Below are positions 24,778-63,208 of a stretch of 64,000 bases of DNA, piece after piece. The notes under the pieces are model-generated. The model did not search any database and was not told where the DNA came from. It was given only the letters and a program-made list of their open reading frames with translations. This DNA comes from Candidatus Omnitrophota bacterium (GTDB lineage: Bacteria > Omnitrophota > Gorgyraeia > Zapsychrales > Fredricksoniimonadaceae). Location of the stretch: NCBI GenBank assembly GCA_015233165.1, contig JADFYF010000001.1, positions 7,762 to 71,761 of the forward strand. Direction: 5' to 3'. The translations under genes and the position numbers were made by a program. How positions within the stretch are numbered: the stretch's first letter is position 1; each line of letters starts with the position of its first letter.

Positions 24778-24816
24778 CAATCAATTTAATTAATTCTTTA
24801 GAGCCACCATTTAGTC

Positions 24817-25348
24817 ATGTTTAAGCTGTTTGTATTAGTCATTCTTATTTTATTCTCCATTTTTAAGGTCGTTTTCGCTCAAACAGAGAGAGCATTGCTT
24901 AAGTATCAAATCCTACCGAATTCTTTTGATAAAATAAATATTCCAAAAGATATTTTAGGTGGTCTTGATCCTAAATCTTTATTAGGGCTTAGAGTTGATT
25001 TAAATGCAGATAGGGTCGATGAGTATATTTTAAGAGATGTTGAGTACAGGTGGATGTGGTTATGAAATTTATGATGGAAAAACCCATAGACTTATATCGG
25101 ATAGAATCTTTGGTAGTCCGATATATGTGTTTGATAAAAAAATAAATGATTATAACATTTTAACAGTCTATAGTCATGGGGGTGCAGCTTCGGGGGTTTA
25201 TGAAACCTATGCCTTCGATGGTAAAAATTATTCCTGTGTTTCACTTGTTGATTTAAAGAATGATTCTCTTGATGATTTTTTCAACACTTACGAAAGTGTT
25301 CCTGAGCTTAATAATCAATTTAATCACACTAATAATAAATCAATTTAA
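24817..25348 (+). pseudogene. Secreted hypothetical protein split by an apparent frameshift near 25035-25050
   Basis: ORF 24817-25065 (signal peptide ...DLNADRVDEYILRDVE) and ORF 25037-25348 (STGGCGYEIYDGK...) overlap in different frames. Together they read as one protein. Confidence 0.5.
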
Positions 25349-25386
25349 TCATGTACTAGTTCAAAACCTTTACTATAATACCAATC

Positions 25387-28019: not shown

Positions 28020-28098
28020 TGTCATTCCCGAATGCTTTTGTCGGGAATCCAGAGATGGCAAACTACTAGGTCCCCGACTAAAACATTCGGGGACGACA
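28020..28098. repeat. 79-bp palindromic intergenic repeat, copy 1 (between sdhA and sdhB)
   Basis: TGTCATTCCCGAATGCTTTTGTCGGGAATCCAGAG...GTCCCCGACTAAAACATTCGGGGACGACA, with termini TGTCA/TGACA. Related copies lie at 30410-30488 (inverted) and 60493-60573. Confidence 0.85.
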
Positions 28099-30409: not shown

Positions 30410-30488
30410 TGTCACCCCCGAATGTTTTAGTCGGGGGGCCAGAGTTGCTATAACTCTGGATTCCCGACAAAAGCATTCGAGAATGACA
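30410..30488. repeat. 79-bp palindromic intergenic repeat, copy 2 (between hemN and hemE), inverted relative to copy 1
   Basis: Its reverse complement aligns with copy 1 arm for arm. The 35-nt left arm differs at 1 position. Confidence 0.85.
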
Positions 30489-30501: not shown

Positions 30502-31506
30502 GTGGCTAAAAATGTAAAGACAACAGAAGAACAAAGTAACTTCTTATTAGCATTTGAAGGAAAGAACAAACAAGTTCCTGTTTGGTTTATGCGTCAAGCG
30601 GGGCGTTATTTGCCTCAATATCAGGCCCTGAAGGCTAAGACTCCCTTAAGAGACTTGTTTCGTAATCCCGAAATTGCAGGTGCGATCACCTTGCAACCTC
30701 TTGAGATTCTTGGGGTGGATGCTGCTATTCTATTTGCCGATATCATGACCATGCCCTCCGGGATGGGATTTGATATCGATTTTGTGGATGGTAAAGGCCC
30801 TGTGATTAGTAATCCTATCTATACCGTGGCGGATCTAAAGCGTTTGGGAAAATATAGCGGACTTGAATATGTGACCCGGACCATTCAGTTGATTAATGCG
30901 GTTCTGCCGCCATCCATTCCTTTAATTGGGTTTGCCGGTTCTCCCTATACCGTTTTAACGTATTTATGTCATAAACAGAATCGTCTGATGTTTGCCGACC
31001 CCAAAGCCTTCCATAAATTTATGGACTTGTTAACAGACAATACGATCACCTATCTTAAACAGCAACAGAAGGCAGGGGTTAAGTCCTTTCAATTGTTTGA
31101 CACTTGGGCTGGCACCTTACGCCATGAAGATTACAAGGTTTTTGTTCTGCCCTATGTGCAGAGAATATTCAATTCTGTGGATCTACCATCCATTTACTAT
31201 CTAAAGAACTGCGCTCATTTGATGGATTTGATGGATAAAAGTGGAGCAGACATGCTTTCCGTTTGTGAAACGGTCAATATTGCCAATATTAAAACAACTA
31301 AAGGTATCCAAGGAAACTTCCTTAACAGCCTGCTCTATGCGGATGAAGCTGTGATAGTTGCTGAAACCAGAAAGCTTCTGAAAGCCGCTAAAGCGAATCA
31401 CCGCAAATACGTTTTTAACTTAAATCATGGTGTGATGCCAGATGTTGATCCCTTGAAGCTGAAGTTGATTGTGGAAGAAGTTCACAATTTTTCCTGGAGT
31501 AAGTAG
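30502..31506 (+). CDS. hemE: Uroporphyrinogen decarboxylase
   Basis: PVWFMRQAGRYLPQY signature. GTG start with an AAGGAG RBS. Confidence 0.9.
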   Translation: MAKNVKTTEEQSNFLLAFEGKNKQVPVWFMRQAGRYLPQYQALKAKTPLRDLFRNPEIAGAITLQPLEILGVDAAILFADIMTMPSGMGFDIDFVDGKGPVISNPIYTVADLKRLGKYSGLEYVTRTIQLINAVLPPSIPLIGFAGSPYTVLTYLCHKQNRLMFADPKAFHKFMDLLTDNTITYLKQQQKAGVKSFQLFDTWAGTLRHEDYKVFVLPYVQRIFNSVDLPSIYYLKNCAHLMDLMDKSGADMLSVCETVNIANIKTTKGIQGNFLNSLLYADEAVIVAETRKLLKAAKANHRKYVFNLNHGVMPDVDPLKLKLIVEEVHNFSWSK

Positions 31507-31534
31507 AAATTTCAAGGAATAAGCATAGAATTCC

Positions 31535-31672
31535 ATACTGCACACATATATGCAGTATTGGCAGTATAAGGAATAATAGTTCTTAATACTGCATAAAGTT
31601 GAAATAAGTTAAAATATATTTTTGCATTATTGATGCAGTATTATTAAGTGTTTTTGCAGTATTTTGCAGTAT
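31535..31672. promoter_or_regulatory. Array of TGCAGTAT octamers (6 perfect, 2 one-mismatch) in the hemE-hemY intergenic region
   Basis: Perfect + strand copies start at 31551, 31634, 31655 and 31665. Perfect - strand copies are at 31535-31542 and 31586-31593. Variants are GGCAGTAT at 31560 and TGCATTAT at 31623. The first pair forms ATACTGCA-N8-TGCAGTAT. Confidence 0.6.
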
Positions 31673-31684
31673 TAAAAGGGGTTT

Positions 31685-32905
31685 ATGAAGAAAATAATTA
31701 TCATTGGTGGTGGGATTTCTGGCCTGGCTGTTTTACATTATATCAAGAAACGCTACCAAGAGACCGTTGAGGTGACTCTTATAGAAAAGAATTCGGATGT
31801 GGGAGGAACCATCGCCTCCTTTGAAAGTCAGGGTTCCATCTTTGAAACTGGTCCTAATGGATTTCTGACCAATCAACCCAATACCCTTGAATTTATCAAA
31901 GATCTTGGATTCTTAGATCAATTAATTGAGGCCAATGAGGATTCCAAGCGTCGTTATATTCAGATGAACGGCAAACTGCATCTTCTACCAATGGATCCTG
32001 TCAATTTCTTTAAAACACCTTTGTTGTCAGCAACAGAAAAGATTCGTCTTATTCAGGGATTATTTAAGAAAAATATTTCTAAAGATCAAAGTGTTTATGA
32101 TTATACAGCAGAACGTTTTGGTCCCGCTGTTGCCAGTCGACTGGTGGATCCTTTTTTAACAGGAATTTATGCCGGGGATATTAAACGTTTACACATGGGC
32201 GCAGCTTTTCCTAAGATGGGAACGCCTAAGGGCCAGCCTAAGGCGAAAATGTGTTCCTTTGTTAATGGAATGGGGAGTTTGATTGGGCAGCTGGCTTTGA
32301 AGTACAAGTCTTCGATTCAGATAGGAGTGGAGGTTAAGGATCTTGCTGAACTTAAGGCGGATACGATTATTTGTGCTACCCCGGCCTATGTGGCAGCAGA
32401 GTTGTTTGGAATGCCGATTCTTCAAGATATTTATTATTCTCCGGTTGCCGTAGTGGGAATGCTCATCAAGAAGGACTCTTTTAAAAGGCTGCCGGATGGT
32501 TTTGGTTATCTGATTCCTTCTGGCGAAGGCAAGGAAGTTTTAGGCGTTCTGATTGAGAGCAATGTCTATACCCGTCAAACATCTAAGGATCAGATCTTCC
32601 TTCGCGTTATGATGGGAGGGGCTCATCATCCGGGGATAGCTTCTTATACTAAGGAACAGCTTCAGGTTTTAGCGTTGAAAGAGATTGATGAAATTTACGG
32701 ACTCAAAGAAGATTCTAGTAGCATTTCTGTTAAATTATGGACCAAGGGTATTCCTCAGTATGAGCTGGATTATCCGGCGATTCGTCAAGCTATTACAGAA
32801 GAATTAAAGAAAAAACAGAACCTGTTTTTATGCGCTAATTACCTGGATGGCATTTCATTTAACGACTGTATCAAGAATGCAAAAGAGTTGGTGGATTCGT
32901 TGTAA
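31685..32905 (+). CDS. hemY: Protoporphyrinogen/coproporphyrinogen oxidase, FAD-dependent (HemY/CgoX family)
   Basis: N-terminal dinucleotide fold IIIIGGGISGLA...EKNSDVGG, amine-oxidase-like length, and haem-biosynthesis context. Confidence 0.75.
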   Translation: MKKIIIIGGGISGLAVLHYIKKRYQETVEVTLIEKNSDVGGTIASFESQGSIFETGPNGFLTNQPNTLEFIKDLGFLDQLIEANEDSKRRYIQMNGKLHLLPMDPVNFFKTPLLSATEKIRLIQGLFKKNISKDQSVYDYTAERFGPAVASRLVDPFLTGIYAGDIKRLHMGAAFPKMGTPKGQPKAKMCSFVNGMGSLIGQLALKYKSSIQIGVEVKDLAELKADTIICATPAYVAAELFGMPILQDIYYSPVAVVGMLIKKDSFKRLPDGFGYLIPSGEGKEVLGVLIESNVYTRQTSKDQIFLRVMMGGAHHPGIASYTKEQLQVLALKEIDEIYGLKEDSSSISVKLWTKGIPQYELDYPAIRQAITEELKKKQNLFLCANYLDGISFNDCIKNAKELVDSL

Positions 32906-32959
32906 AAGAGTTAAGATTTCACTATTTTATAAACAAACTTATGATAGGATGGAGCAATT

Positions 32960-34162
32960 ATGAAATGGATTATTTGTGTTTTTCTATTAGTCTTTAGCGG
33001 TTGTCAGCAATCTTCCAAAGAGAATCATTATACGGAAGTTGTTCCTCAAGCCCCTGCTCCAACTGTTCCAGCTACTCCTAAAATGGATTCTAGTGCTGAT
33101 CCTCACGCGGGGATGGATATGGATATGTCTGCGATGGGTGGAATGATGCCTGGTCTAGAAAATTCTGTGGCTAAGAATATCAGCTACGGTTGGACAGTTC
33201 CAGAAGGATGGAAGGAAGAAGCAGGTCAAGGCATGCGTTTAGCAACCTTTCATTTAACGTCAGATGAAAAAGCCATTGATTCTTCGATTGTCTCATTAGC
33301 TGGTGTGGCGGGAGGTTTAGAGGCTAATTTAAAACGTTGGATGGGACAAATCGGTTTAGAATCTTCGGCGACTGATTTAACAGGACTCATTAATGCAGCA
33401 TCTTCTATTAAGATTAAGGGTGGTCAAGAAGGCAAGGTTTTTGACTTCACAACGATTCAATTACAGGGTAAACCAACTGATAAAAGTATGATTGTTGTTA
33501 TGCTTCCTATGAATAACGCCACCTTGTTTGTCAAGGTGACTGGCACCCTGGAAACAGTTAAGAAGAACAAAGATGATTTCTTTAAGCTCGTGCAATCCAT
33601 CGAACCTAAGGGGGATGCCAGTTCAGTGACTGCTAATCCATTGGTTGGTGGTGACATGAAGGATCCTCATGCAGGAATGAATATGAATTCCGTGGGATCT
33701 ATGATGGAAAAATTAGGACCTCCAGTCAGCAATATTTCATGGGCTGTTCCTGAAGGGTGGAAGGAAGAAGCTGCTAAACATATGCGTATGGCTACTTTTC
33801 ATTTGGCCAGCGATCCTACGCTCATCGATTGTGGCATGATTGCTCTTGCCGGTGCTGCGGGTGGAGTTGAGCCTAATTTAGCCCGTTGGGCAGGACAATT
33901 AGGTTTGTCTGATTCTCCAGATACAATCGCAAAGCTAATGGCTGCTGCAATGGCAGTAAAGACTAAGGATGGCAAGGATGTTCAAGTCTATGACTTTACG
34001 GCGATTCAAACCAATGCTCAGAGTACAGATAAAAGTATGATTGCGGCCATATTATCGGTCGACAATTTAAGTATTTTTATTAAAATGACAGGCACTCTGG
34101 ACGCTATTAAGAAAAACAAAGAATCTTACTTAAAATTAATTAGCTCCATAGCCCATAAATAA
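32960..34162 (+). CDS. Lipoprotein made of two tandem ~175-aa repeats, each preceded by a His/Met-rich motif; unknown function
   Basis: Lipobox VFSGC. Repeat 1 is DPHAGMDMDMSAMGGMM...WTVPEGWKEEAGQGMRLATFHL...TGTLETVKKNKDDFFKLVQSI. Repeat 2 is DPHAGMNMNSVGSMM...WAVPEGWKEEAAKHMRMATFHL...TGTLDAIKKNKESYLKLISSI. Confidence 0.7.
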   Translation: MKWIICVFLLVFSGCQQSSKENHYTEVVPQAPAPTVPATPKMDSSADPHAGMDMDMSAMGGMMPGLENSVAKNISYGWTVPEGWKEEAGQGMRLATFHLTSDEKAIDSSIVSLAGVAGGLEANLKRWMGQIGLESSATDLTGLINAASSIKIKGGQEGKVFDFTTIQLQGKPTDKSMIVVMLPMNNATLFVKVTGTLETVKKNKDDFFKLVQSIEPKGDASSVTANPLVGGDMKDPHAGMNMNSVGSMMEKLGPPVSNISWAVPEGWKEEAAKHMRMATFHLASDPTLIDCGMIALAGAAGGVEPNLARWAGQLGLSDSPDTIAKLMAAAMAVKTKDGKDVQVYDFTAIQTNAQSTDKSMIAAILSVDNLSIFIKMTGTLDAIKKNKESYLKLISSIAHK

Positions 34163-34167
34163 ACTTT

Positions 34168-35271
34168 ATGATGAAATTTTTAAGCTCAACACGTATTACG
34201 GTGGTTTGTCTGTTTCTGTTATTTATTTTAACCTTCTGGGGGACGATTGCCCAAGTCCAGCAAGGGTTATATAGCGCCCAGGAACGGTTTTTTAATTCTT
34301 TTTATTTTCTAGCTGCAGGTTTTATTCCTTTCCCAGGGGCTCAACTCGTTCTTTGGGTCTTATTTATCAATTTACTTTGCATGTTTATATTGTCTTATAA
34401 GAAATTCTTCCAGTGGTCGAATTTGGGCAATCTTATAATTCATTTGGGGATTCTTCTTTACTTTGTAGCTGCTTTTATGGTTTTTCATGTTTCAAGTGAG
34501 TCCTATATCCGTTTTACTGAGGGGCAGACAACAAATGTCTCTAATTCTTATACGGATTGGGAGGTTGCTTTTTGGGTTGATACCAATGGAAAGAAGCGCG
34601 AAATAACAGCCGTTGATACAAAGGTTTTTAAACCGGAGTACATCATTCCTACGGATACCAAAGATTTTTCTTTAACTGTCAAACAATACTATTCCAATAG
34701 TGACGCGTTTAGTGATGGAAGTGGAAAGAAAAACCCAAGAATTCTTAATGAAGAAGGAATTACTCTTTTAACTCCCAAGCCTATTCTTAAAGAAAGAGAA
34801 CAGAATGTGGCGGGTGGAGTTTTTAATATCAAATTCGATGGAAAGTCCTATACCTTAATCCTCTATGGCATTGAAGTAAATCCTACGGAAGTGATGATCG
34901 CTGGGAAGAAGTATAACTTTATTTTACGTCATAAGCATTTCCCCTTGCCCTTTACTCTAAAATTAGATCACTTTAAAACAGAGTTTTATCCTGGAATGGA
35001 TATGGCTAAGAGTTACGAAAGTCTGGTTACGATTTCAACAGGAACTTTGGAGCGACAGGTAAGGATTTATATGAATAATCCTTTAAGATATAACGATTAC
35101 ACCGTCTACCAAGCGTCCTATGATGCGGATAGTACTGGTCGACAATATACCACCTTAGCGGTGGTTCGGAATTCAGCTCGGATAATGCCTTATGTGTCTT
35201 GTTTAGTTGTTTTCTTTGGGCTGGCCCTACATTTCTTAATGCAGGCATTTATTTCAAGAATAAAACCATGA
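34168..35271 (+). CDS. ccsB: System II cytochrome c biogenesis protein CcsB/ResB-like (short, 367 aa)
   Basis: N-terminal TM helices, a periplasmic domain, C-terminal NDYTVYQASYD and a final TM. ATGA overlap with ccsA. Confidence 0.7.
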   Translation: MMKFLSSTRITVVCLFLLFILTFWGTIAQVQQGLYSAQERFFNSFYFLAAGFIPFPGAQLVLWVLFINLLCMFILSYKKFFQWSNLGNLIIHLGILLYFVAAFMVFHVSSESYIRFTEGQTTNVSNSYTDWEVAFWVDTNGKKREITAVDTKVFKPEYIIPTDTKDFSLTVKQYYSNSDAFSDGSGKKNPRILNEEGITLLTPKPILKEREQNVAGGVFNIKFDGKSYTLILYGIEVNPTEVMIAGKKYNFILRHKHFPLPFTLKLDHFKTEFYPGMDMAKSYESLVTISTGTLERQVRIYMNNPLRYNDYTVYQASYDADSTGRQYTTLAVVRNSARIMPYVSCLVVFFGLALHFLMQAFISRIKP

Positions 35272-37130
35272 AAATAAAAATACTCTTAACAATTGCTTTC
35301 ATATTATCTTCTTTTCATATGGCTTTTGCTGAGCCGGGGATTAAAGATTTTAAGATTTTTAAGAATATCCCTGTTCTTGATCAAGGGCGACTTAAACCTA
35401 TAGATACTTTTGCTCGCAGCTTATTGACGCAGTTTTCAGGTAAGGATCATTATGAGAAACAAGATGCGTCCTCTTGGTTAGCCTCGTTGTTTTTTAATCC
35501 TGATTCAACCGTCAATGACAAGATTTTTCAAATCAATAATCCTGATACCGCAACAGCACTAGGGATTACACCTGACCAGCACCGTCGTTATACTCCTGCT
35601 CAACTTCAAAAAGCCTATCCCAAGTTAGTGGAACTTCAAGATGCGGCCAGAAAGATTCCTGAAAAAGAACGCAATCTGGTGGAAAATGAAATCTTAAGAG
35701 TCTTTGAAAATATCAATATTTACGCAGACCTATCTCGTTCATTTTTATTTACATCCCCTCAAAAAGATTTAACGATCACCTCAAAAGCTTTAAAAACTAA
35801 GATGGGTTTACCGCTGGAACAGAATGAATTTAGTTTTATCGATATAGCATTAAAAGCGGATGTCATGACTGAAATGGCTCAGTCCTTAGAGAAAAAGTCT
35901 CAAAGTCAATTTACAGCAGATGAGTTAGAAATTTATAACGTTACTAATAATCTTTTTGGCATGTCTCAAAAATATAAAGAGATGCCTTCTTTTACGGTTC
36001 TTCCATCAGCGACAGAAAAAGGACGATGGTTAAATCCGTGGGATGCTCTTATTTTAGACTTTAGCAATCAACAAACCCGACAGCTGTTATCTTATTGGAA
36101 TACTATGGCAATTAGCTTTAGACAGGATAATGGGGTGGAGTTTAATGTTGCTGCGCATTTATATATGAACCAAATTAAGGATGCCTTGTCTAACGACGAA
36201 CTTAAAAGTTTCAATAAATTTCCATTAGAGTTGTTTTATCATTCGGCGAGTCCGTTTACCTTGTCGATTATGTTTTACATTTTAACCTTTATTTTCTTTA
36301 TTATTTCCTTTTCATCCTCGAAGCAGATCTGGTATACGTTGGCAATGTGGAGTACCTTTGCTGGATTTGCGATTCATACGATAGGTTTACTGATGCGTAT
36401 CATCATTATGGCGCGCCCTCCGGTGTCGAGCCTTTATGAAACCTTTATCTTTGTTGGTTTTATTACCGTGTTATTAGGCTTAATTATTGAACACTTCAAT
36501 AGACAATGGTTGGGATTTGTGACAGCAGCGATTAGTGGGACAGCATTATTATTTATTGCAAATAAATATAGTGCCGAAGGAGATACGCTTAAGATGCTCG
36601 TTGCTGTTCTTAATTCTAACTTTTGGTTAGCGACCCATGTGACAACAATTACGATGGGTTACGCTGCGACCTGGGTTGGGGGAGTATTGGGTCATATTTG
36701 GTTGTTACAGGCCGTTTTTGGTAAGGACAATGAAACTCTGGATAAAACCTACAAAACAACCTTAGGAATTCTAGGAGTAGCTCTGACGTTAACCTTCCTT
36801 GGAACTAATCTTGGTGGTATCTGGGCAGATCAAAGCTGGGGGAGATTCTGGGGGTGGGATCCAAAAGAGAACGGAGCATTAATGATTGTTCTCTGGACAG
36901 CTTTATTATTTCACGCCAAGGTGGCTAAGATGATAGGACCTTTAGGGATGGCTGTCGGCGCTGTCTTTGGTATGATGGTCGTGATGTGGGCGTGGTTTGG
37001 TGTCAATCTATTAAGCGTGGGGCTTCATTCCTATGGTTTTACTGCCGGTATTGCAACAACCTTGATCGCTTACGCTGTGATTGAAATTGTTTTTATGATG
37101 GTAACCATTTGGTTTATTTCTAGAAAATAA
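35268..37130 (+). CDS. ccsA: System II cytochrome c biogenesis protein CcsA/ResC with ~320-aa N-terminal periplasmic extension
   Basis: WWD-type haem-handling motif WGRFWGWDPKENGAL and multiple TM helices in the C-terminal half. The start was moved from 35199 to ATG 35268 (signal peptide MKIKILLTIAFILSSFHMAFA). Confidence 0.85.
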   Translation: MKIKILLTIAFILSSFHMAFAEPGIKDFKIFKNIPVLDQGRLKPIDTFARSLLTQFSGKDHYEKQDASSWLASLFFNPDSTVNDKIFQINNPDTATALGITPDQHRRYTPAQLQKAYPKLVELQDAARKIPEKERNLVENEILRVFENINIYADLSRSFLFTSPQKDLTITSKALKTKMGLPLEQNEFSFIDIALKADVMTEMAQSLEKKSQSQFTADELEIYNVTNNLFGMSQKYKEMPSFTVLPSATEKGRWLNPWDALILDFSNQQTRQLLSYWNTMAISFRQDNGVEFNVAAHLYMNQIKDALSNDELKSFNKFPLELFYHSASPFTLSIMFYILTFIFFIISFSSSKQIWYTLAMWSTFAGFAIHTIGLLMRIIIMARPPVSSLYETFIFVGFITVLLGLIIEHFNRQWLGFVTAAISGTALLFIANKYSAEGDTLKMLVAVLNSNFWLATHVTTITMGYAATWVGGVLGHIWLLQAVFGKDNETLDKTYKTTLGILGVALTLTFLGTNLGGIWADQSWGRFWGWDPKENGALMIVLWTALLFHAKVAKMIGPLGMAVGAVFGMMVVMWAWFGVNLLSVGLHSYGFTAGIATTLIAYAVIEIVFMMVTIWFISRK

Positions 37131-38052: not shown

Positions 38053-39105
38053 ATGAAAATACTCACAGTAGGTATTAATCATAAAACTTCTTCCATTGAT
38101 TTACGTGAAAAGTTTTATTTGTCGCCCCTGGAACGTGAACTTTTAATTTCAGACTTTAAAACTGATCCCTCTGTAGTATCCGCAGTCATTTTATCTACAT
38201 GTAATCGATGCGAAATATATGCGACAGTTGTCGATGATTGTCAACCCAAGAGTCTTTTGGATAAACTCTTTCGTGTTAAACGTCAGGCCATGAGTTTAGA
38301 CCTTCAGCAAATGTTCTATTTTATAGAGGGAGCTGAAGCGGTTAAACATTTCTTACAAGTTGCTTGTGGGTTAGATTCTTTAATCTTAGGAGAGAAACAA
38401 ATTTTAGGTCAAATTAAAGAGGCCGTGGCTTTATCGAGACAAAACGGTTTAATGGACAAGGTTCTCAATATCCTAACTAATTTTGTTTTAGAGACGGGCA
38501 AGAAAGCGCGTCAAGATACGCAAATTGATTTTGGCGGAGTATCGGTGAGTGCGGCTGCTGTTAATATGGCTAACAACATTTTAGGTGGCCTAGAGGATAA
38601 AACAGTTTTAGTTCTCGGCTCTGGAAAAATGGGACAATTAGCCTTGAATAATTTACAACAGAAAAAGGTTAAGCAGGTGTTTTTAATGAATAGGACAACT
38701 GAAAAAGCTGTTGTTGTCGCCGAGGAATTTAAGGCGGAGTGTGTGCCCTTCTGGAATATGAAGGAAAACTTAGCTAAGGTGGATGTGTGCATTTGTTCCT
38801 CAGGAGCTCCTCATTATTTAATTTCCAAAGATTTAGTTGCCAGTATTATGGCCACACGCTTTACACCTCTAGTGTTGGTCGATATTTCCATGCCACGCAA
38901 TATTGATCCCGCCGTCGCTGAAGTTTCTAATACCCGATTGATCGCCTTAGACGATTTAGATAAAGTCATCGAGGGGAATCTTCAAAAACGCAAGGATGCT
39001 GTCATCTTGGTCAATAATTTAATTTCACGTAAGGTGGAAGAATTTTATAAAGCGATATCAAAGATTGAAGCACTGAGTTCTGAGAAAATTTTATTATCAA
39101 AATAA
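38053..39105 (+). CDS. hemA: Glutamyl-tRNA reductase, paralogue 1 (350 aa)
   Basis: LSTCNRCEIY (catalytic Cys), GLDSLILGEKQILGQIK and the NADPH fold LVLGSGKMG. Confidence 0.9.
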   Translation: MKILTVGINHKTSSIDLREKFYLSPLERELLISDFKTDPSVVSAVILSTCNRCEIYATVVDDCQPKSLLDKLFRVKRQAMSLDLQQMFYFIEGAEAVKHFLQVACGLDSLILGEKQILGQIKEAVALSRQNGLMDKVLNILTNFVLETGKKARQDTQIDFGGVSVSAAAVNMANNILGGLEDKTVLVLGSGKMGQLALNNLQQKKVKQVFLMNRTTEKAVVVAEEFKAECVPFWNMKENLAKVDVCICSSGAPHYLISKDLVASIMATRFTPLVLVDISMPRNIDPAVAEVSNTRLIALDDLDKVIEGNLQKRKDAVILVNNLISRKVEEFYKAISKIEALSSEKILLSK

Positions 39106-39132: not shown

Positions 39133-39411
39133 ATGAAAAGAAAACAAATTATTATTTTAGGAATCGGTTTAATCTTCACAATGATGACTATTCCTGCTCA
39201 AGCGAGTTTATCAGAAGTTAAGAAATACAAAGAGGCGTTTGCTGATGCAAAGCCTAAATGTGTCGAATGCCACGTCGATGCAATGCCTAAGAAGGCGGAT
39301 GGACAGCATGAATTAAATTCCTATGGTAAGGCGGTTGTTGCAGTCGCAGCGCAGCCAACGGCAGATACTTATAAAAAGGTTGGAAGCATTGAAAGTTTTG
39401 GTAAGAAATAA
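39133..39411 (+). CDS. Small secreted monohaem c-type cytochrome, paralogue A (92 aa precursor)
   Basis: Signal peptide ...IPAQA and a single CVECH. The conserved block is YKEAFADAKPKCVECHVDAMPKKADGQHELNSYGKA. GAGGA RBS. Confidence 0.75.
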   Translation: MKRKQIIILGIGLIFTMMTIPAQASLSEVKKYKEAFADAKPKCVECHVDAMPKKADGQHELNSYGKAVVAVAAQPTADTYKKVGSIESFGKK

Positions 39412-39430: not shown

Positions 39431-39712
39431 ATGATAAACACAAATTCTAAGATTTTTTACTTTTTATTAGCAGCTGTACTGGTTCTTGGTTTTTCTATTC
39501 CGGCCCAAGCCAATATGAAAATTGTTAAAGCTTACAAAGAAGCTTATCCAGATGAAAAGCCAAAATGTATTGGTTGCCATGTGGACGCCATGCCCAAAAA
39601 AGATGGCGCGCATGACCCCAATGATTATGGTAAGGCTTTAAAAGCAGCAGCAGCGGAAGTAACAGTGGATTCAATTAAGAAGGTTGGAAAGATCGAAGAT
39701 TTTAAGAAATAA
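39431..39712 (+). CDS. Small secreted monohaem c-type cytochrome, paralogue B (93 aa precursor)
   Basis: Signal peptide ...IPAQA and a single CIGCH. It shares the YKEAYPDEKPKC..CHVDAMPKK...H..N.YGKA block. AGGAG RBS. Confidence 0.75.
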   Translation: MINTNSKIFYFLLAAVLVLGFSIPAQANMKIVKAYKEAYPDEKPKCIGCHVDAMPKKDGAHDPNDYGKALKAAAAEVTVDSIKKVGKIEDFKK

Positions 39713-40542: not shown

Positions 40543-42708
40543 ATGAGAAGTCTTAGAGTAATACTCTCAATAGCAATAACAGTTTACCTTTCAGGAATAG
40601 GGAATCTGGTGGTGTTTGCTCAAGAAACAACACCTGCCCTTAGTGTCACTGTTGCTCCTGTGCAATATGCTAGTGTCAACGGGAGTGTGGCCAAATTCAG
40701 AGCGCTTAACTGGACAAAGGATGGAGGAGATGCTGGCATTTCCGATATAACCTTCCTCAAACAAATTAACAAGGATATCTCCATAGAAGCCGAAGGGAGT
40801 GCTTTCTTAAAGACAAATAACAATACTGGACACCTGCTACTTAAAAAAGATGATCTTGCCTTCTTACAGATCGATTATAATGCGTTTAGAAAGTATTATG
40901 ATGGAACAGGCGGGGTCTATCCTTATGAAATTAATACTAGTAGTACTAGTGATCTCACTACTTATGTTGATTATGGCAAAATTCCGGATCAATATCAAGC
41001 AGCTCAACCCAGCAGTCCAGATCTTCAGATGGATGTCAGTTTCTTCAAATTAGAAGCTGGTTTAGGGCCAGTGAATGATCCTTTTTTGGATGTAGCCTAT
41101 CAACATAATTCCAAGGATGGAAATAAATCGCTTTTACAGTGGGTTTATGCTTACCCTTCTCTTAACGGTACTCCCAAAACTGTTTCACAATCCTATAGGA
41201 AAATTGGACCAGCTTGGGCTGCGGTCAATAATTATACGGATACTGTTACTCTGAAAGAAAAGAAGGAAATTGCAGGAATTACCTTTAAAGGAGTGCAGAC
41301 GGCTGAATTTGATTACAATCACAGTTTGACGTATATGCAGTATTTGAATGATACTGTTTCAGGTTCACAAAATCAACTTAACACTGTTTATGATAATCCA
41401 GATGCTAAGTTGTTTGGTTCAGGCGTAAGAGCTGAAAAATGGATGCTCAATGATAAAACCTTTGCAGCCTTGGGGTATCATTACAGCCATATACACTCTA
41501 CAGATATTCTGCAAAGAATGGTCTATACTTCTGCGACTCTTGGTGGAGTAGCAACGGCTTTACCTACCAATTCAAGTGCCAGTGGTTGGAGTCTTGCTCA
41601 GGCTTTACAAGATAGTCATGTCTGGGTAGGAAATGTTAACTCTGAATTGACTTCAAACTTAACCTTTCTTGCAGACACCAGATATGAGCATAGTGGTGCC
41701 GAGGCAAATTCACAGTATTACCCTGGCACTGCTTTAACAACGGCCAATAATGAAGCTATGGAAAATCATCAGGATAACGTCGGCGAACATCTTGCTTTAC
41801 ATTATTCTGGCATTAGTCATACGACTTTGTATGCTGAAACCGATTTTCAACAAGGTAGGAATTGGGTCAGTGATCAGTTTAATACAGGTAGTGGTTCTAA
41901 TCCTGGTACTGATTTTTTAACCAGGCTTAATAGAATGCAAAGTGCTTCTTGGACTGCTGGAGGTAGAATCGTTCCTAACAGATTCTTTACCTTTACAACA
42001 CAGGTTAAAGCCCACGATAGAGTGGATAATTACGATACAATTTCAGATACGATAACTAAACCAGGTGGTAGCACTTTTAGTGATAGGATTATTCTGCTAT
42101 CTTCTTTGAGAGTCAGAGGAGTAGAAGAAAGTTCTACGCTTGGCTGGAAGCCTTATCGCTGGCTCCAAAATTCTTTTAGGTATCAGTTCTCTGATAATGT
42201 TTATAGCCCAGTGGGTATTGCAGCTACACCTTCTGATATATCTGTAAATCATATGCTCACATCGAAGTATACCTATGAAATTACAGTACAGCCGATAGAT
42301 CCTCTTTTATTCATGCTATCTTATTCGCATGTGCAGGATTATATCAGGAGCATTACAGCATCAAATCCTGAAGCGACAAATTACAATACAACACCGAATA
42401 TTCCGACTTTCAACTCAGGGTACAATAGCTGGGTGTTTTCATCAAGCTATTCTCCAAGAGGGGATTTGACTTGGAATAATACGGTAAGCTATACAATTTC
42501 TCCTAATTACGTCAATTTTACTAACGGCATTCCTTTAGGTTCAGATTTTAGGGAGCTTGATTTTGGCACAGGGCTTGATTGGTCTTATCGTAAGTGGTTG
42601 AAGGTTAGTCCAGGGTATGAACATGCTTCTTACCGTGATAATGCTTTAACTGGAGCCGGTAATTATTCAGCGAATATTTTCAAATTAAGCCTTAGCTGTA
42701 AGTGGTAA
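40543..42708 (+). CDS. Large outer-membrane beta-barrel protein, candidate MtrB/PioB-like sheath for the upstream cytochrome
   Basis: Signal peptide ending VFAQE. 721 aa, rich in alternating aromatic/polar beta-strand-like segments, G/N/S/T/Y-rich, with a C-terminal ...KLSLSCKW (aromatic terminal residue). It starts 22 nt after the MtrA-like gene. Confidence 0.6.
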   Translation: MRSLRVILSIAITVYLSGIGNLVVFAQETTPALSVTVAPVQYASVNGSVAKFRALNWTKDGGDAGISDITFLKQINKDISIEAEGSAFLKTNNNTGHLLLKKDDLAFLQIDYNAFRKYYDGTGGVYPYEINTSSTSDLTTYVDYGKIPDQYQAAQPSSPDLQMDVSFFKLEAGLGPVNDPFLDVAYQHNSKDGNKSLLQWVYAYPSLNGTPKTVSQSYRKIGPAWAAVNNYTDTVTLKEKKEIAGITFKGVQTAEFDYNHSLTYMQYLNDTVSGSQNQLNTVYDNPDAKLFGSGVRAEKWMLNDKTFAALGYHYSHIHSTDILQRMVYTSATLGGVATALPTNSSASGWSLAQALQDSHVWVGNVNSELTSNLTFLADTRYEHSGAEANSQYYPGTALTTANNEAMENHQDNVGEHLALHYSGISHTTLYAETDFQQGRNWVSDQFNTGSGSNPGTDFLTRLNRMQSASWTAGGRIVPNRFFTFTTQVKAHDRVDNYDTISDTITKPGGSTFSDRIILLSSLRVRGVEESSTLGWKPYRWLQNSFRYQFSDNVYSPVGIAATPSDISVNHMLTSKYTYEITVQPIDPLLFMLSYSHVQDYIRSITASNPEATNYNTTPNIPTFNSGYNSWVFSSSYSPRGDLTWNNTVSYTISPNYVNFTNGIPLGSDFRELDFGTGLDWSYRKWLKVSPGYEHASYRDNALTGAGNYSANIFKLSLSCKW

Positions 42709-45699: not shown

Positions 45700-45996
45700 A
45701 TGAAACGCATTAATAGTCTTTTAGTTCTTTCAACAATTTTATCCGTCGGTGTTTCAAGTAGTTTAGTCCTAGCTAATCCAACAATGATTAAAGCTTATAA
45801 ATCTGTCTATCCTGATGCTAAGCTGAAATGTAATATGTGTCATGTGGATGCCTTACCTAAGAAGGCTGAAGGATCTCATGAATGGAATGCCTATGGTTTA
45901 GCAGTTAAGAAAGCGGCTAAAGATGCTGGCTTAGAACATCCCACAGAAGATACATTTAAAGCTGCGGGCAAGATAGAAGATTTCAAAGGCAAGTAA
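45700..45996 (+). CDS. Small secreted monohaem c-type cytochrome, paralogue C (98 aa precursor)
   Basis: Signal peptide ...LVLA and a single CNMCH. It carries the same YKSVYPDAKLKC..CHVDALPKKAEGSHEWNAYG block as paralogues A and B. AGGAG RBS. Confidence 0.75.
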   Translation: MKRINSLLVLSTILSVGVSSSLVLANPTMIKAYKSVYPDAKLKCNMCHVDALPKKAEGSHEWNAYGLAVKKAAKDAGLEHPTEDTFKAAGKIEDFKGK

Positions 45997-46021
45997 ACAA
46001 AAGTCAATATTTTCTCACAAT

Positions 46022-46052
46022 AAAAATACTCCTAGTGCATAGGAGTATTTTT
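46022..46052 (+). terminator. Intrinsic terminator after the Rieske/cyt b/cytochrome unit
   Basis: TACTCCTA-gtgca-TAGGAGTA is flanked by an A-run upstream and TTTTT downstream, so it is potentially bidirectional. Confidence 0.7.
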
Positions 46053-46147
46053 ATTAATAACAACTATATCGAAAAAATTATTGTTATATAATGTTAAGAG
46101 TTTGATTTAAGTCTTATTAATTTCTATTATCAATCAGGTATAGACTA

Positions 46148-49919: not shown

Positions 49920-50978
49920 ATGTTAATTATTGGATTAAACCACAAGACTGCCCCTATCGAAGTTCGTGAGAAGTTCTTTTTAAATCCAGCTCAACAGGAC
50001 CTTTTATTATTAGAACTCAAAAATAATCCTTTGGTCAATGAGGCTTTTGTTCTTTCAACCTGTAATCGGGTGGAGGTTTATTTAAAAAGATCGAATGAGT
50101 CTATTGATCGTGATTTTGTCGTCAGTATGATAGCTAAGGTCAGAAAGACTTCCGTTGACTCTAAGTTAACTCATCATGTTTATAGTTATGAGAATACAGA
50201 GGCTGTGGAACACCTTTTTAGAGTTGCTACAGGATTAGATTCTCTAGTTCTTGGCGAAAAACAAATTTTAGGTCAGCTTAAACATTCTGTAGATCGTGCT
50301 CGTGAACTAGGGTTGTTGTCTAGATATTTTAACATTTTAAGTAATGTGGCTATCCGTACAGGGAAGAAGGCTCAAACAGAAACAGATATCAGTTTTGGAG
50401 GTTCTTCGGTCAGTTGGGCGGCCATTGAAATGGCTAAACAGACCTTAGGGACGTTGGCTGAGAAATCTGTTTTGATTATTGGTGCCGGTAAGATGGGGGA
50501 GTTGGCTTTAACGAATCTTAATAATCATTCTGTCTCCAAGATTTATTTGATGAATCGGACTGGTGAGAAGGCGGATGTTTTAGCTCAACAATATAGAGGG
50601 ATAGCTGTCTCTTTTTGGGATATTAAGGATATTTTAACGGAAGTTGACCTATGTTTTTGCTCTGTAGGGGCACCTCATTACATTTTAGATCAGGAAAAAA
50701 TGGCCCAAATTATGGCCCTTCGTCGTGGACGACGATTGGTTTTGGTGGATATTTCTATGCCGCGCAATATTGATCCTGCTGTAGCCCAAATACCCAACGT
50801 TCATTTAAGCTCTATTGATGCTCTTGATGGAGTCGTTCAGGCCAATATGAAGAAGCGACAAGAGGCTATTTCCCAGGTTAAAGAAATCATCTCTCAGAAA
50901 ATCGTTGAGTTTAATCAGAAATGGGAGAAGCTGCAGTCTTTAAATGATTCTGATTTTTTTGAAATCACTCAATCCTAA
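49920..50978 (+). CDS. hemA: Glutamyl-tRNA reductase, paralogue 2 (352 aa)
   Basis: LSTCNRVEVY, GLDSLVLGEKQILGQLK and IIGAGKMG. It shares LVLVDISMPRNIDPAVA exactly with paralogue 1 and is roughly half identical overall by eye. Confidence 0.9.
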   Translation: MLIIGLNHKTAPIEVREKFFLNPAQQDLLLLELKNNPLVNEAFVLSTCNRVEVYLKRSNESIDRDFVVSMIAKVRKTSVDSKLTHHVYSYENTEAVEHLFRVATGLDSLVLGEKQILGQLKHSVDRARELGLLSRYFNILSNVAIRTGKKAQTETDISFGGSSVSWAAIEMAKQTLGTLAEKSVLIIGAGKMGELALTNLNNHSVSKIYLMNRTGEKADVLAQQYRGIAVSFWDIKDILTEVDLCFCSVGAPHYILDQEKMAQIMALRRGRRLVLVDISMPRNIDPAVAQIPNVHLSSIDALDGVVQANMKKRQEAISQVKEIISQKIVEFNQKWEKLQSLNDSDFFEITQS

Positions 50979-53380: not shown

Positions 53381-54895
53381 ATGGCACAACATTTGAATCC
53401 CGAAGAAATCACAAGTATTCTTAAAAAAGAATTAGCTACATTTGAAGGTAAGATCCAAACCTATGAAATAGGAACAGTTCTTAATGTGGGCGACGGTATT
53501 GCTCGTGTCTATGGTTTAAATAATGTTATGTCCGGCGAGTTGGTTGAATTTAGTAATGGGATTCGCGGGATTGCTCTTAACCTAGAACAGGATAACGTGG
53601 GTGTGGCTATTTTTGGTAGTGATAGTGATATTAAAGAAGGGGATGAAGTTAAACGTACCGGAAGAATTGCTTCTGTTTCTGTAGGGGACGCTCTTTTAGG
53701 ACGCATCCTTGATGGTTTAGGTAATGCGATTGACGGTAAAGAACCGATTGTAGCCAAAGAGTTTCGCCAAATTGAACTTAAAGCCCCAGGGATTATTGAT
53801 CGTAAAAACGTTCATGAACCTTTGCAGACGGGAACCAAGGTTATCGACGCTTTAACGCCCGTCGGTCGTGGTCAGCGTGAACTTATTATTGGGGATCGTA
53901 AAACAGGAAAGACTACCCTAGCCATTGATACGATTATCAACCAAAAGGGCAAAGGTGTATTTTGTTTTTATGTGGCCATTGGACAAAAGCGTTCTACTGT
54001 TGTTGGCGTCTATGAAAAGCTCCGTAAGTATGGAGCGATGGAATACACAACTATTATCGCTGCAACCGCATCTGATCCCGCTCCTATGCAATTTTTATCC
54101 GCTTACTCAGCAACAGCTATGGCGGAATATTACCGTGACACCGGTCGTCATGCTTTGATTATTTATGATGATTTAACTAAACAAGCTCAGGCCTATCGTC
54201 AAATGTCGTTATTGTTACGTCGTCCACCAGGTCGTGAAGCTTATCCTGGAGATATATTCTATTTACATTCACGTCTTTTGGAACGTGCTTGTAAGTTAAG
54301 CGATGTTAAGGGGGCTGGGAGCTTAACGGCTTTGCCTATTATTGAAACGCAGGCGGGTGATGTGTCTGCATATATTCCAACCAACGTTATCTCTATTACG
54401 GATGGCCAGATTTTCTTAGATGTGGATCTTTTTAACGCGGGTCAACGTCCTGCCATCAATGCTGGTCTTTCTGTTTCCCGCGTTGGAGGAGATGCTCAAG
54501 TTAAAGCTATGAAACAAACCGCTGGGTCTTTACGTTTAGAATTAGCTCAGTACCGGGAACTCGCTGCGTTTTCTCAGTTTGCTTCTGATTTGGATGCAGC
54601 AACCAAGAAACAATTGGATCGTGGTAAGCGTCTGATGGAAATTATTAAGCAGGGGATTCAGGTTCCCTTACCCGTTGTGAAACAAGTCGCTATTATTTTT
54701 GCTGCTGTTAATGGATATTTGGATGATCTTCCGGTTAATAAAATCAAAGCATTTGAAGATCACCTAGGTATACAGCTAGATAGCAAATATACCGATTATG
54801 TTAAATTATTTAATAACACGTTAGTTATGACAGATGAAATTAAAACAGCCCTCAAGAAAATCTTAGAGGAAGTTAAGTCAACCTTTTTAGCATGA
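53381..54895 (+). CDS. atpA: F-type ATP synthase F1 subunit alpha
   Basis: P-loop GDRKTGKT, and [20 protein letters not shown]. Confidence 0.97.
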
Positions 54896-54908
54896 TTCTC
54901 TTTAATAG

Positions 54909-57196
<2,288 letters not shown>

Positions 57197-60492: not shown

Positions 60493-60573
60493 GAATAACT
60501 TTTGTCATGCCCGAATGCTTTAGTCGGGCATCTAGAACTTATCGCAAACCCTGGATCCCCGATAAAAACATTC
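60493..60573. repeat. 81-bp palindromic intergenic repeat, copy 3 (between the aldolase gene and ilvC)
   Basis: TGTCATGCCCGAATGCTTTAGTCGGGCATCTAGAA...CTGGATCCCCGATAAAAACATTCGGGGATGACA. It begins at the first base after the aldolase stop codon. Confidence 0.85.
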
Positions 60574-60606
60574 GGGGATGACAGGAAAAAAATATAAAGG
60601 AACAAA

Positions 60607-61599
60607 ATGGCTAAAATTTATTATGATAAAGATTGCAACATTAATGACATTAAAAATAAAACGGTCGCTGTGGTGGGATATGGAATTCAAGGTCGTGGTC
60701 AGGCTTTGAATTTACGTGACAGCGGTTTGAAGGTTATTGTCGCACAGCGTCCAGGTGGACCTAATTATGACAAAGCCATTCAGGATGGTTTTAAACCCAT
60801 GTCTGTTGAAGAAGCAACCAAGTTGGCGGATGTCATGATTATCTTAACCCAGGATCATCTGCAAGCCGACATCTACCATAAATCCATTGCTCCTTTTTTA
60901 ACCAAGGGCAAGGCATTAGCCTTCTCTCATGGGTTTAATATTCATTTTAAGTTAATCGTTCCTCCTAAGGATGTTGATGTCTTCATGATTGCTCCTAAGG
61001 GACCAGGTTCCTTGGTTCGTCGTCAGTATGAAGAGGGCAAAGGGGTTCCTTGCCTGGTGGCAATTCATCAAAATGCAACGAAGAATGCCTTAAAGATTGC
61101 TTTGGCTTATGCCAAGGGCGTCGGTGGTTCTCGTGCGGGTATCATCCAAACAACCTTCCAGGAAGAAACGGAAACCGATTTGTTTGGTGAACAAGCGGTC
61201 TTGTGCGGCGGCGCTAGTGAATTGATCAAGGCAGGTTTTGAAACCTTGGTGAAGGCTGGTTACCAACCTGAGATTGCTTATTTTGAATGTTTGCACGAAT
61301 TGAAATTGATTGTAGATATCATTTATGAAGAAGGTATTCAGGGAATGCGTAAGAAGGTTTCTGATACCGCTGAATATGGTGATTTGACACGTGGTCCACG
61401 TATTGTGACTGCTAAGACACGTGCTGAGATGCAAAAAATCTTAAAAGAAATCCAAACAGGCAAATTCGCTAAGGAATGGATGGCTGAGAATAAAAACGGC
61501 CGTAAGAACTTCCTTCAAATGCGTAAAGCCGGTGATGCTCACCCGATTGAAAAGGTGGGAGCTCGACTACGTTCCATGATGAGTTGGATGAAAAAATAA
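60607..61599 (+). CDS. ilvC: Ketol-acid reductoisomerase (class I)
   Basis: [23 protein letters not shown] fold, plus FSHGFNIHF and [14 protein letters not shown]. Confidence 0.95.
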
Positions 61600-61640
61600 T
61601 GTAAGATACGGATAAAATCTCAGGAAAAATGCTACAATTA

Positions 61641-61670
61641 CCCTGTACCGTTCTGGTACAGGGTTTTTTA
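61641..61670 (+). terminator. Intrinsic terminator CCCTGTACC-gttct-GGTACAGGG + TTTTTTATT, ending 15 nt before the leuA ATG
   Basis: A 9-bp GC-rich stem with a 6-T run. No room for a promoter remains before leuA. Confidence 0.75.
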
Positions 61671-61684
61671 TTAAGGATAATATT

Positions 61685-63208
61685 ATGAAAAAAAATGATA
61701 AGGTTTTGATATTTGATACAACGTTAAGAGACGGGGAACAAGCCCCCGGCGCTACGATGAATCAGGCAGAAAAGTTAGAAATTGCTTTTGCCTTGGAACG
61801 TTTGGGTGTGGATATCATTGAAGCCGGATTTGCGATCTCTTCGAAAGGGGATTTTGATTCGGTTCAGAATATCGCTAAGCATATTAAAAAATCGACGGTT
61901 TGCTCCTTGGCGCGTTCCTTGCCTAAGGATATCGATGCCGCCGCGGATGCGATTAAACCGGCAAAGAATGGACGTATCCATATCTTCTTAGCGACATCGA
62001 AGATTCATTTGGAGCATAAGTTTAAAAAGAGTCAGGATCAAATCTTGGATATGGCTATTAGCGCGGTCAAGTATGCCCGCAAACGTTGTGACAATTTGGA
62101 ATTCTCTCCGGAAGATGCTTCGCGTACAGAGAAGGAATTCTTGTATCGCGTCTTGGAAGCGGTTATTAAAGCAGGAGCAACAACGGTAAATATTCCTGAT
62201 ACCGTCGGTTATAGCACACCGGCTGAGTATGGCGCTGTTATTGCAGGGATTATGAATCATGTTCCTAATATCAACAAAGCGATCATCTCTACCCATTGCC
62301 ACGACGATTTGGGTTTGGCAGTGGCGAATTCCTTGGCTGGCGTCGTCAATGGCGCTCGTCAGGTCGAATGCACTATTAACGGGATTGGGGAGCGGGCCGG
62401 CAATGCGTCGATGGAAGAAATCGTTATGGCGATCCGAACACGGAAAGACTTCTATAGCTTAGATACCAACATTAATGCTAAAGAGTTCTATCGGATTTCA
62501 CGGATGGTTTCTAAGGCGACAGGTTTTATTGTCCCGCCGAATAAAGCGATTGTGGGAGCCAATGCGTTTCGTCATGAATCGGGTATTCATCAAGACGGTG
62601 TTTTGAAAGAAAAACGCACGTATGAAATTATGGATGCGGAGTCCGTCGGTGTTCCTCCTAATGAAGGATTGGTCTTGGGAAAGCATTCCGGTCGTCATGC
62701 GTTTACGAATCGTTTAAAGGTTTTAAACATTCATTTGTCCGACGCAGATACCGATAAGGCTTTTGCCCGTTTTAAGGATTTAGCGGATAAAAAGAAGGAA
62801 ATTTACGACGAGGATTTGATTGCGATCGCCGAAGATGAAGGTCATTTGGTGGCTGAAATCTATACCTTGATGGATTACCATGTAACCAGCGGGACCAAGG
62901 TTGCCCCTGAGGTGAATATCACCTTGAAGTACAAGGGAAAGAAGATTGTCAAGAAATCGACGGGAGATGGTCCGGTGGATGCGTGTTACAAAGCCATTGA
63001 AAAGGCAACTTCGTTGAAGATTCAATTGATGGATTACGGTATTCAATCCGTCAGTCAGGGGGAAGATGCCTTAGGCGAAGTGAAGGTCAAGGCTGTCGTC
63101 GAAGGAAAGACAGTTATGGGGCGTGGGGCAAGCACAGATATTATTGAAGCATCTGCCAAAGCCTACGTGAACGCGGTTAATAACTATTTAGCGCAAAGTC
63201 AAAAATAA
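61685..63208 (+). CDS. leuA: 2-isopropylmalate synthase (citramalate synthase cannot be excluded)
   Basis: DTTLRDGEQ, the HCHDDLGLAVANS metal site, and a C-terminal LeuA-dimer regulatory domain. 507 aa. Confidence 0.85.
   Translation: MKKNDKVLIFDTTLRDGEQAPGATMNQAEKLEIAFALERLGVDIIEAGFAISSKGDFDSVQNIAKHIKKSTVCSLARSLPKDIDAAADAIKPAKNGRIHIFLATSKIHLEHKFKKSQDQILDMAISAVKYARKRCDNLEFSPEDASRTEKEFLYRVLEAVIKAGATTVNIPDTVGYSTPAEYGAVIAGIMNHVPNINKAIISTHCHDDLGLAVANSLAGVVNGARQVECTINGIGERAGNASMEEIVMAIRTRKDFYSLDTNINAKEFYRISRMVSKATGFIVPPNKAIVGANAFRHESGIHQDGVLKEKRTYEIMDAESVGVPPNEGLVLGKHSGRHAFTNRLKVLNIHLSDADTDKAFARFKDLADKKKEIYDEDLIAIAEDEGHLVAEIYTLMDYHVTSGTKVAPEVNITLKYKGKKIVKKSTGDGPVDACYKAIEKATSLKIQLMDYGIQSVSQGEDALGEVKVKAVVEGKTVMGRGASTDIIEASAKAYVNAVNNYLAQSQK

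Follow-up and report, generated by a model that had tools for sequence, protein, structure and literature searches.

Direct repeats at one-turn spacing are typical of the sites bound by winged-helix response regulators and by ribbon-helix-helix (iteron-binding) proteins. Two such sites, the HssR box of Staphylococcus and the HemR hem-box of Leptospira, are haem-related operators of the OmpR/PhoB type. Boxes of 7–8 bp, repeated many times in both orientations over more than 100 bp, form the NarL/NarP arrays in front of narG, nrfA and nirB. The units of iteron and centromere arrays are tandem, 8–11 bp long, and covered by a cooperative protein filament, as in ParR–parC of plasmid R1, the omega heptads and the MetJ metboxes.

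The locus analysed here is an array of copies of the 8-base word TGCAGTAT, located between the genes hemE and hemY of a Candidatus Omnitrophota bacterium. The DNA that was analysed is a stretch of 64,000 nucleotides, referred to as the window, and all coordinates are positions within it. The geometry of the array is consistent with a DNA-binding protein that occupies one face of the double helix, which is consistency and not proof.

The octamer array of the hemE–hemY spacer

The array is part of an operon with the gene order sdhCAB–hemN–hemE–hemY–resB–ccsA, which is followed past the CcsA-like gene by a radical-SAM gene and then by hemA. All genes of the window are on the + strand, and 91% of the window is coding. 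The assignment of the flanking genes as hemE and hemY in the original prediction was correct, and ResB-like and CcsA-like genes are located downstream. The HemY protein encoded in the window is identical to the NCBI protein MBF0489025.1 from a Candidatus Omnitrophota MAG. The features of the spacer and its surroundings are as follows:

30502–31506, + strand: hemE (uroporphyrinogen decarboxylase), the upstream cistron (Pfam URO-D, E = 1e-92)
31507–31684: hemE–hemY spacer, 178 bp, 27% G+C
31535–31542, − strand: box 1, perfect TGCAGTAT
31551–31558, + strand: box 2, perfect TGCAGTAT; forms ATACTGCA-N8-TGCAGTAT with box 1 at 31535–31558
31560–31567, + strand: box 3, GGCAGTAT, one mismatch; 9 bp after box 2
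31586–31593, − strand: box 4, perfect; forms a 13-bp stem with box 3
31623–31630, + strand: box 5, TGCATTAT, one mismatch; exactly 6.0 helical turns past box 3
31634–31641, + strand: box 6, perfect TGCAGTAT
31655–31662, + strand: box 7, perfect TGCAGTAT
31665–31672, + strand: box 8, perfect; ends 12 nt before the hemY start codon
31674–31687, + strand: Shine-Dalgarno-like AAAAGGGG (31674–31681), then the ATG of hemY (31685); read from the sequence, with the start supported by homologue alignment
31685–32905, + strand: hemY, FAD amine-oxidase-type protoporphyrinogen oxidase (Pfam and homologues)
31685–37130, + strand: hemY, a lipoprotein-like ORF, and ResB-like and CcsA-like (cytochrome c assembly) genes, which would be the targets of the array

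The segment 31535–31672 contains six perfect and two one-mismatch copies of the octamer. The positions, strands, mismatch copies and spacings that had been predicted were all confirmed, together with the palindrome formed by the first two copies; the starts of the + strand boxes are separated by 9, 63, 11, 21 and 10 bp. Box 4 lies in the second half of a perfect 11-nt inverted repeat, which is composed of TATGCAGTATT at 31549–31559 and AATACTGCATA at 31585–31595. About 1.5 copies of the octamer are expected in the whole 64 kb, and six were found within 138 bp. The window contains seven perfect copies, compared with 1.47 ± 1.11 expected, and none of 100 shuffles reached seven. The Poisson probability of at least six copies in 178 bp is ~2e-17 at the base composition of the spacer, and the array is by far the densest word cluster of the window in a scan of all 7- to 10-mers. 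Across the window, copies with one mismatch are about as numerous as expected (46 found, 48 expected). The alternative named with the prediction, that the octamer is a common repeat of intergenic DNA, does not hold within the 64 kb: no intergenic copy was found beyond the hemE–hemY spacer, either in the other intergenic regions, which include those of several cytochrome operons, or upstream of hemN, hemE and both copies of hemA. The extreme enrichment, confined to a single site, counts for a binding array. A literature search for the octamer returned primers and unrelated sequences only.

The sole other copy of TGCAGTAT in the window is at 41334–41356, where TATGCAGTATT is followed after 7 nt by ATACTG, an inverted half. 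The site is positioned within ORF 40543–42708 (721 amino acids, no Pfam match), between genes for multihaem cytochromes. One perfect octamer outside the spacer corresponds to the chance expectation, and the status of this site is uncertain.

The quality of the boxes is bimodal. The eight copies match the octamer at seven or eight of its eight positions, and no copies with six matches were found elsewhere in the spacer, compared with 1.1 expected; therefore, boxes are either intact or absent. A satellite in passive decay would not be expected to look like this. When the eight copies are aligned, the information content is confined to the 8-mer and falls sharply outside it, the flanks having a weak T-rich bias. 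A longer duplicated unit was rejected, because neighbouring boxes alone account for the similarity of the flanks between boxes.

The spacer contains no ORF of at least 20 residues, and the few ORFs that touch it extend into hemE or hemY. Mini-ORFs starting from ATG codons inside the boxes (MQYWQYKE and MQYY) were rejected, as neither is preceded by a Shine-Dalgarno sequence. No intrinsic terminator was predicted in the region 31300–31900, where neither of the two hairpins of the spacer precedes a T-run, and hemY would therefore otherwise be expected to be read through from hemE. No convincing sigma-70 promoter was found inside or downstream of the array; the sole sigma-70-like match is the weak TAGAAA-16-TAGAAT at 31504–31531, upstream of the array.

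The head of the operon contains a repeat of its own. The 13-mer ATCAATTTAATCA occurs in two exact copies (25314–25326 and 25339–25351), 25 bp apart, the pair ending 36 bp before the sdhC start codon at 25387, and a one-mismatch copy is located at 24780–24792. The 13-mer was not found in the relatives, and the pair may serve the first genes of the operon as an operator or promoter element.

Eight related loci, with HemY proteins 58–69% identical to that of the window (69% for the nearest homologue), were compared. In all eight, hemY abuts or overlaps its upstream gene, with a gap of at most 23 bp:

L003, L004, L005: hemE directly before hemY, gap of 1–2 bp
L131: hemE directly before hemY, the genes overlapping
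L001, L002: prfC, Band_7 and sometimes DUF1643 between hemE and hemY; hemY at most 23 bp from its upstream neighbour
L130 and the JGI locus: another gene 9–19 bp before hemY

The order of the genes from hemY through the CcsA-like gene is also found in relatives. The spacer boundaries 31507–31684 are sound, because the C-terminus of HemE and the N-terminus of HemY align with those of the relatives. No cluster of the octamer was found in the relatives, and a single chance copy occurs in ~100 kb comprising the DNA of seven relatives and three further loci. Since the relatives have neither a spacer at the hemY junction nor an octamer cluster, the spacer and its array are evidently a novelty of the source lineage. 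On this comparison of sequences, the 178-bp spacer with its array is a lineage-specific insertion in an operon that is otherwise conserved and tightly packed. No second copy of the spacer was found in the 64-kb window or in the relatives, and a search of metagenome contigs with HemY yielded only four loci, of 30–53% identity, with no closer relative among them. The possibility that the spacer is a deletion scar of prfC and Band_7 was rejected, because tblastn detected no remnant of these genes, and neither is present elsewhere in the window.

Helical phasing and the origin of the array

The spacing of the boxes by near-multiples of a helical turn, as originally predicted, was borne out. The six + strand boxes have a Rayleigh R of 0.95 at 10.4–10.5 bp. 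No other period from 5 to 25 bp does better, and R falls to 0.42 at 10.0 bp and to 0.36 at 11.0 bp. Approximately 0.3% of random non-overlapping placements phase as well (p about 0.003, the statistic having been computed only after the pattern had been noticed). Five of the six + strand boxes are within 0.05 turn of each other. The boxes form three close pairs (9, 11 and 10 bp), which are whole helical turns apart, and the phase is kept across the 63-bp stretch, equal to 6.0 turns, that has no + strand box and contains only the inverted box 4. The two − strand boxes are about half a turn out of phase with the + strand boxes.

The 3′ half of the spacer has the character of a tandem repeat, detected by TRF:

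31620–31673, + strand: degenerate tandem array, period ~10–10.4 bp, 5.2 units, 71% matches, score 48 (weak)

This segment, which includes boxes 5–8 and in-phase T-tracts, is the only tandem array of the window with more than 2.2 copies. TRF detected a second 10-bp duplication at 31596–31616, and in boxes 7 and 8 TTTGCAGTAT is repeated exactly, in tandem, with a period of 10 bp. A degenerate 10–11-bp tandem duplication, with units of 10, 11, 10, 11 and 10 bp, can explain most of the phasing in the 3′ half. The 63-bp gap of 6.0 turns is not explained by tandem duplication. As a constant-period head-to-tail VNTR, the segment 31620–31673 qualifies weakly, and the 5′ half of the spacer has inverted copies and irregular gaps.

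The duplications bear on the explanation that the spacer is non-adaptive repeat DNA without a dedicated binder. Slippage would have produced the 9–11-bp duplications and template switching the inverted copies; the product would have been tolerated since hemY has its own ribosome-binding site, and the phasing would be a by-product of the ~10.4-bp unit. We consider this origin, the main rival of a binding array, possible but rather doubtful. The period-10 array, the second duplication and the duplicated boxes 7 and 8 are what it would leave behind, and the restriction of the spacer to the source lineage, as well as the failure to find a regulon or a regulator within 64 kb, agrees with it. The 185,579 species genomes searched for three direct copies of TGCAGTAT with gaps of 1–30 bp contain at least 119 matching loci, in unrelated phyla, and among the matches listed nearly every array with at least three copies is a simple tandem repeat. 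However, slippage and switching do not readily account for the absence of partly decayed boxes, and the perfect copies at either end of the spacer and on both strands would require several independent recent events. Furthermore, even across the 63-bp box-free gap the boxes are a whole number of helical repeats apart, and the array is the sole one of its kind in the densely coding window.

Repeat DNA of another kind has entered the same operon. A self-complementary MITE/REP-like element of ~80 bp, TGTCATTCCCGAATGCTTTTGTCGGGAATCCAGAG...CTCTGGATCCCCGACTAAAACATTCGGGGATGACA, is present in three copies, all of them in intercistronic spacers:

28020–28098: copy at the sdhA–sdhB junction
30410–30488: copy at the hemN–hemE junction
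60503–60583: third copy

The core of the element, CCCCGA-N9-TCGGGG, occurs three times in the window compared with zero expected, and the element is absent from the loci of the relatives. The two inserts within the operon speak for a non-adaptive origin of the hemE–hemY spacer: because selfish repeats have expanded two other junctions of the operon, a repeat-rich insert at a third junction is unsurprising. The element is unrelated to the octamer array. With the three-copy element as a positive control, the array itself does not resemble a MITE or REP family: it has no second copy in the 64 kb or in the relatives, a terminal inverted identity of 8 bp only, and no visible target-site duplication.

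The reading that we favour, although tentatively and short of calling it probable, is that of an array of recent origin, bound by protein on one face of the helix, which provides hemY–ccsBA with a control point of its own. A one-face geometry is supported by the tight phasing, the eight sharp-edged boxes without decayed intermediates, and the presence of both orientations. Four features favour a function: the quality of the boxes is bimodal, perfect copies occur on both strands, the phase on one face is kept exactly across a gap without repeats, and the array lies against the ribosome-binding site of hemY. Against a function are the lack of conservation in the eight relatives and of a regulon or regulator in the 64 kb; the absence of a convincing sigma-70 promoter inside or downstream of the boxes, the tandem repeat of the 3′ half, the tolerance of repeat inserts at other junctions of the operon, and the post hoc calculation of the phasing statistic also count against a binding array.

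If the spacer is a binding array, several copies of one sequence-specific DNA-binding protein would occupy the in-phase boxes cooperatively and may form a nucleoprotein filament or a bend over the 50 bp that precede the ribosome-binding site. Binding would block read-through from hemE or control a weak internal promoter, and hemY, together with the genes for cytochrome c maturation, would be expressed independently of the upstream sdh–hemN–hemE genes. The array was probably built by short 9–11-bp duplications, after which the boxes would have been kept while the flanks drifted. A bolder proposal, which we regard as speculative and rather unlikely, is that the spacer records the recent birth of an operator: phased boxes arising from 9–11-bp duplications would have placed protoporphyrinogen oxidase and cytochrome c maturation under new control, by a novel regulator that recognizes an 8-bp word.

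The array is a single locus in a single MAG. If it is bound by a protein, it would be a clean natural example of a new regulatory node arising inside an old operon, with the ancestral spacerless state visible in the relatives and the building duplications still legible. It would also offer a first way into the study of gene regulation in Omnitrophota, which are known almost wholly from uncultivated organisms. If the spacer is filler produced by slippage, it is a caution that boxes can come to be phased at one turn, and motifs to have sharp edges, in DNA that has no function.

Candidate regulators, RNA structure and mobile DNA

The original prediction was a cooperative binding array for a transcription factor that controls hemY, and perhaps the downstream ccs genes, in response to haem, iron or redox state. 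The cooperative array stands in part: its geometry fits a one-face protein, whereas conservation, recurrence and a regulator in the 64 kb were not found. A conserved regulon for haem, iron or redox state is made less likely by these results, and a haem, iron or redox signal is pure conjecture. No gene for a DNA-binding regulator or transcription factor was found among 50 of the 57 large non-nested ORFs, which were scanned with Pfam, or among the small ORFs, which were inspected by eye; the ORFs outside the Pfam scan are the ATP-synthase subunit genes at 53381–57196 and the ORFs at 60607–63208. Operator consensus sequences were matched against the spacer. Those of Fur, PerR, Irr, FNR, LexA, NarL, IHF, parS and sigma-54 gave no match or chance-level matches with 3–4 mismatches, and those of HemR and HssR gave none even at generous mismatch limits. 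A sigma-54 promoter was rejected because the GG-N10-GC spacing is not present. A replication origin was also rejected, since there is no DnaA box (TTATNCACA, at most one mismatch) and the cumulative GC skew rises steadily with no switch of sign.

The window contains two paralogues of hemA (glutamyl-tRNA reductase), at 38053–39105 and 49920–50978, 11 kb apart. The second is in a MoeA–MobA–DUF2231–hemA context, as in the relatives. The first belongs to a block at ~37.1–47.7 kb that contains radical-SAM, hemA, multihaem cytochrome and Rieske/cytochrome b genes and is absent at the corresponding position in the relative L004. Three paralogous small ORFs of 92–98 amino acids (39133–39411, 39431–39712 and 45700–45996) encode proteins whose N-terminus resembles a signal peptide and which have one CxxCH motif each (KCxxCHVDAMPKK); the ORFs flank the genes for multihaem cytochromes and a bc-type complex. 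Just 3′ of a small cytochrome ORF, at 46019–46054, is a near-perfect long palindrome, AATAAAAATACTCCTAG...CATAGGAGTATTTTTATT (−18.5 kcal/mol), which looks like a terminator. At the beginning of the window, a DUF6036 nucleotidyltransferase-like ORF (1329–1814) is overlapped by an ORF of 62 amino acids (1811–1999), and the pair may be a toxin–antitoxin module.

The inverted boxes give the spacer the potential to fold as RNA. Boxes 1 and 2 form a hairpin at 31530–31562 with an 8-bp stem and an 8-nt loop (−11 kcal/mol, z −3.3), and boxes 3 and 4 form one at 31558–31597 with a 13-bp stem (−14 kcal/mol, z −5.5). The element may act in RNA, with the two hairpins past the hemE stop codon protecting or processing the upstream transcript in the manner of stabiliser or REP-like hairpins. 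Alternative pairing of the sense-strand UGCAGUAU repeats of the hemY leader, either with the two AUACUGCA segments or with a factor acting in trans, would tune the translation of hemY. Both hairpins are stable, the second stem reaching 6 bp beyond the boxes, and the spacer as a whole folds at z −2.65; box 4 can pair alternatively with box 8, the last before the ribosome-binding site (−21 kcal/mol). Strong hairpins are common in the other intercistronic spacers of this genome, and without a predicted terminator the spacer would be transcribed. However, no significant structure was predicted for the 3′ half and its four boxes (z +0.26). The structure scores are a trivial consequence of a word being present in inverted copies, and phasing at 10.4–10.5 bp is meaningful in duplex DNA and not in RNA. 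No family of Rfam 15 matched the spacer (best 23.7 bits against a threshold of 178), and there are no homologues for an analysis of covariation. We consider a role in RNA improbable.

A segment of the spacer, TTTTGCATTATTGATGCAGT (31620–31639, boxes 5–6), is identical at 18 of 20 positions to the reverse complement of 32865–32884, which is the conserved 3′ coding end of hemY (the DCIKNAK region). The match is borderline, with a window-wide E of about 0.5, and 0.13% of random chunks of the window score as high. An inverted duplication may have left this match, or it may reflect long-range pairing within the mRNA.

The arrangement of the boxes also invites comparison with mobile DNA. The array would then be the remnant or the end of a mobile or recombination element, with boxes that bind a transposase, an integrase or a partition protein, modelled on subterminal repeats, arm-type sites or centromere-like iterons. 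Boxes 1 and 8, the outermost ones (31535 and 31665), are mutually inverted like 8-bp terminal repeats, the internal boxes are paired as in arm-type or subterminal sites, and the spacer is an insertion relative to the relatives. The presence of prfC and Band_7 at the junction in two relatives indicates that it has been rearranged before. Nevertheless, such an origin is highly improbable. The terminal identity stops at 8 bp and there is no target-site duplication; no transposase, integrase, rep, par or ribbon-helix-helix gene was found among the scanned ORFs of the window; and the array has no second copy in the 64 kb, compared with three copies of the real MITE family. A blastn search of the spacer against plasmids and phages gave chance-level AT-rich matches only. 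In viral contigs, the 11-mer inverted repeat had no match, and the inverted–direct–inverted box pattern had three, which is about the number expected by chance.

Two of these three matches are irregular clusters of three copies of TGCAGTAT in mixed orientation, in AT-rich intergenic DNA of two IMG/VR contigs (L132, 518–567, and L133, 8355–8424). One of the clusters is upstream of small HTH-like phage early ORFs, and the other is upstream of an ORF judged by eye to resemble a small terminase subunit.

Comparison with known systems

The palindromic REP/BIME and MITE elements resemble the array in that inverted copies form hairpins between cistrons, and the operon contains true MITE-like elements. 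The array differs from them as a single locus in the 64 kb, with no long terminal inverted repeat, target-site duplication or overall palindrome. The resemblance to a VNTR or minisatellite lies in the 5-unit, ~10-bp repeat of the 3′ half detected by TRF, and the octamer arrays listed from other genomes are, almost without exception, regular tandem repeats. By contrast, the spacing of the array is irregular, two of its perfect copies are inverted, it has no decayed units, and its phase continues across a 63-bp non-repeat gap.

Iteron and centromere arrays share with the spacer a period of about one helical turn, and proteins of the omega type tolerate mixed orientations. They differ in that the spacer belongs to a core chromosomal operon, its boxes are not all contiguous, and no rep, par or ribbon-helix-helix gene was found nearby. 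The NarL/NarP arrays provide a likeness in the number, size and mixed orientation of the boxes, in the extent of the array, and in the position before respiratory or cytochrome-related genes. However, the consensus, TACYYMT or its 7-2-7 arrangement, is not matched here (4 of 14 positions mismatched at best), no LuxR-type regulator was seen in the window, and the array is not conserved in the relatives.

The operators of the OmpR/PhoB type differ from the array in sequence: the array corresponds neither to TGACA-N6-TGACA nor to GTTCATATT-N2-GTTCATATT, the consensus sequences of these operators. The array has eight boxes and not two, and some of them are inverted; it abuts a ribosome-binding site and not a recognizable −35 element, and no response-regulator gene was found in the 64 kb. 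What the spacer shares with these operators is direct repeats on one face of the helix, approximately one turn apart (9–11 bp), by a gene of the haem pathway; its three pairs of boxes, at 9, 11 and 10 bp, have the centre-to-centre spacing of about 10–11 bp that is expected for response regulators.
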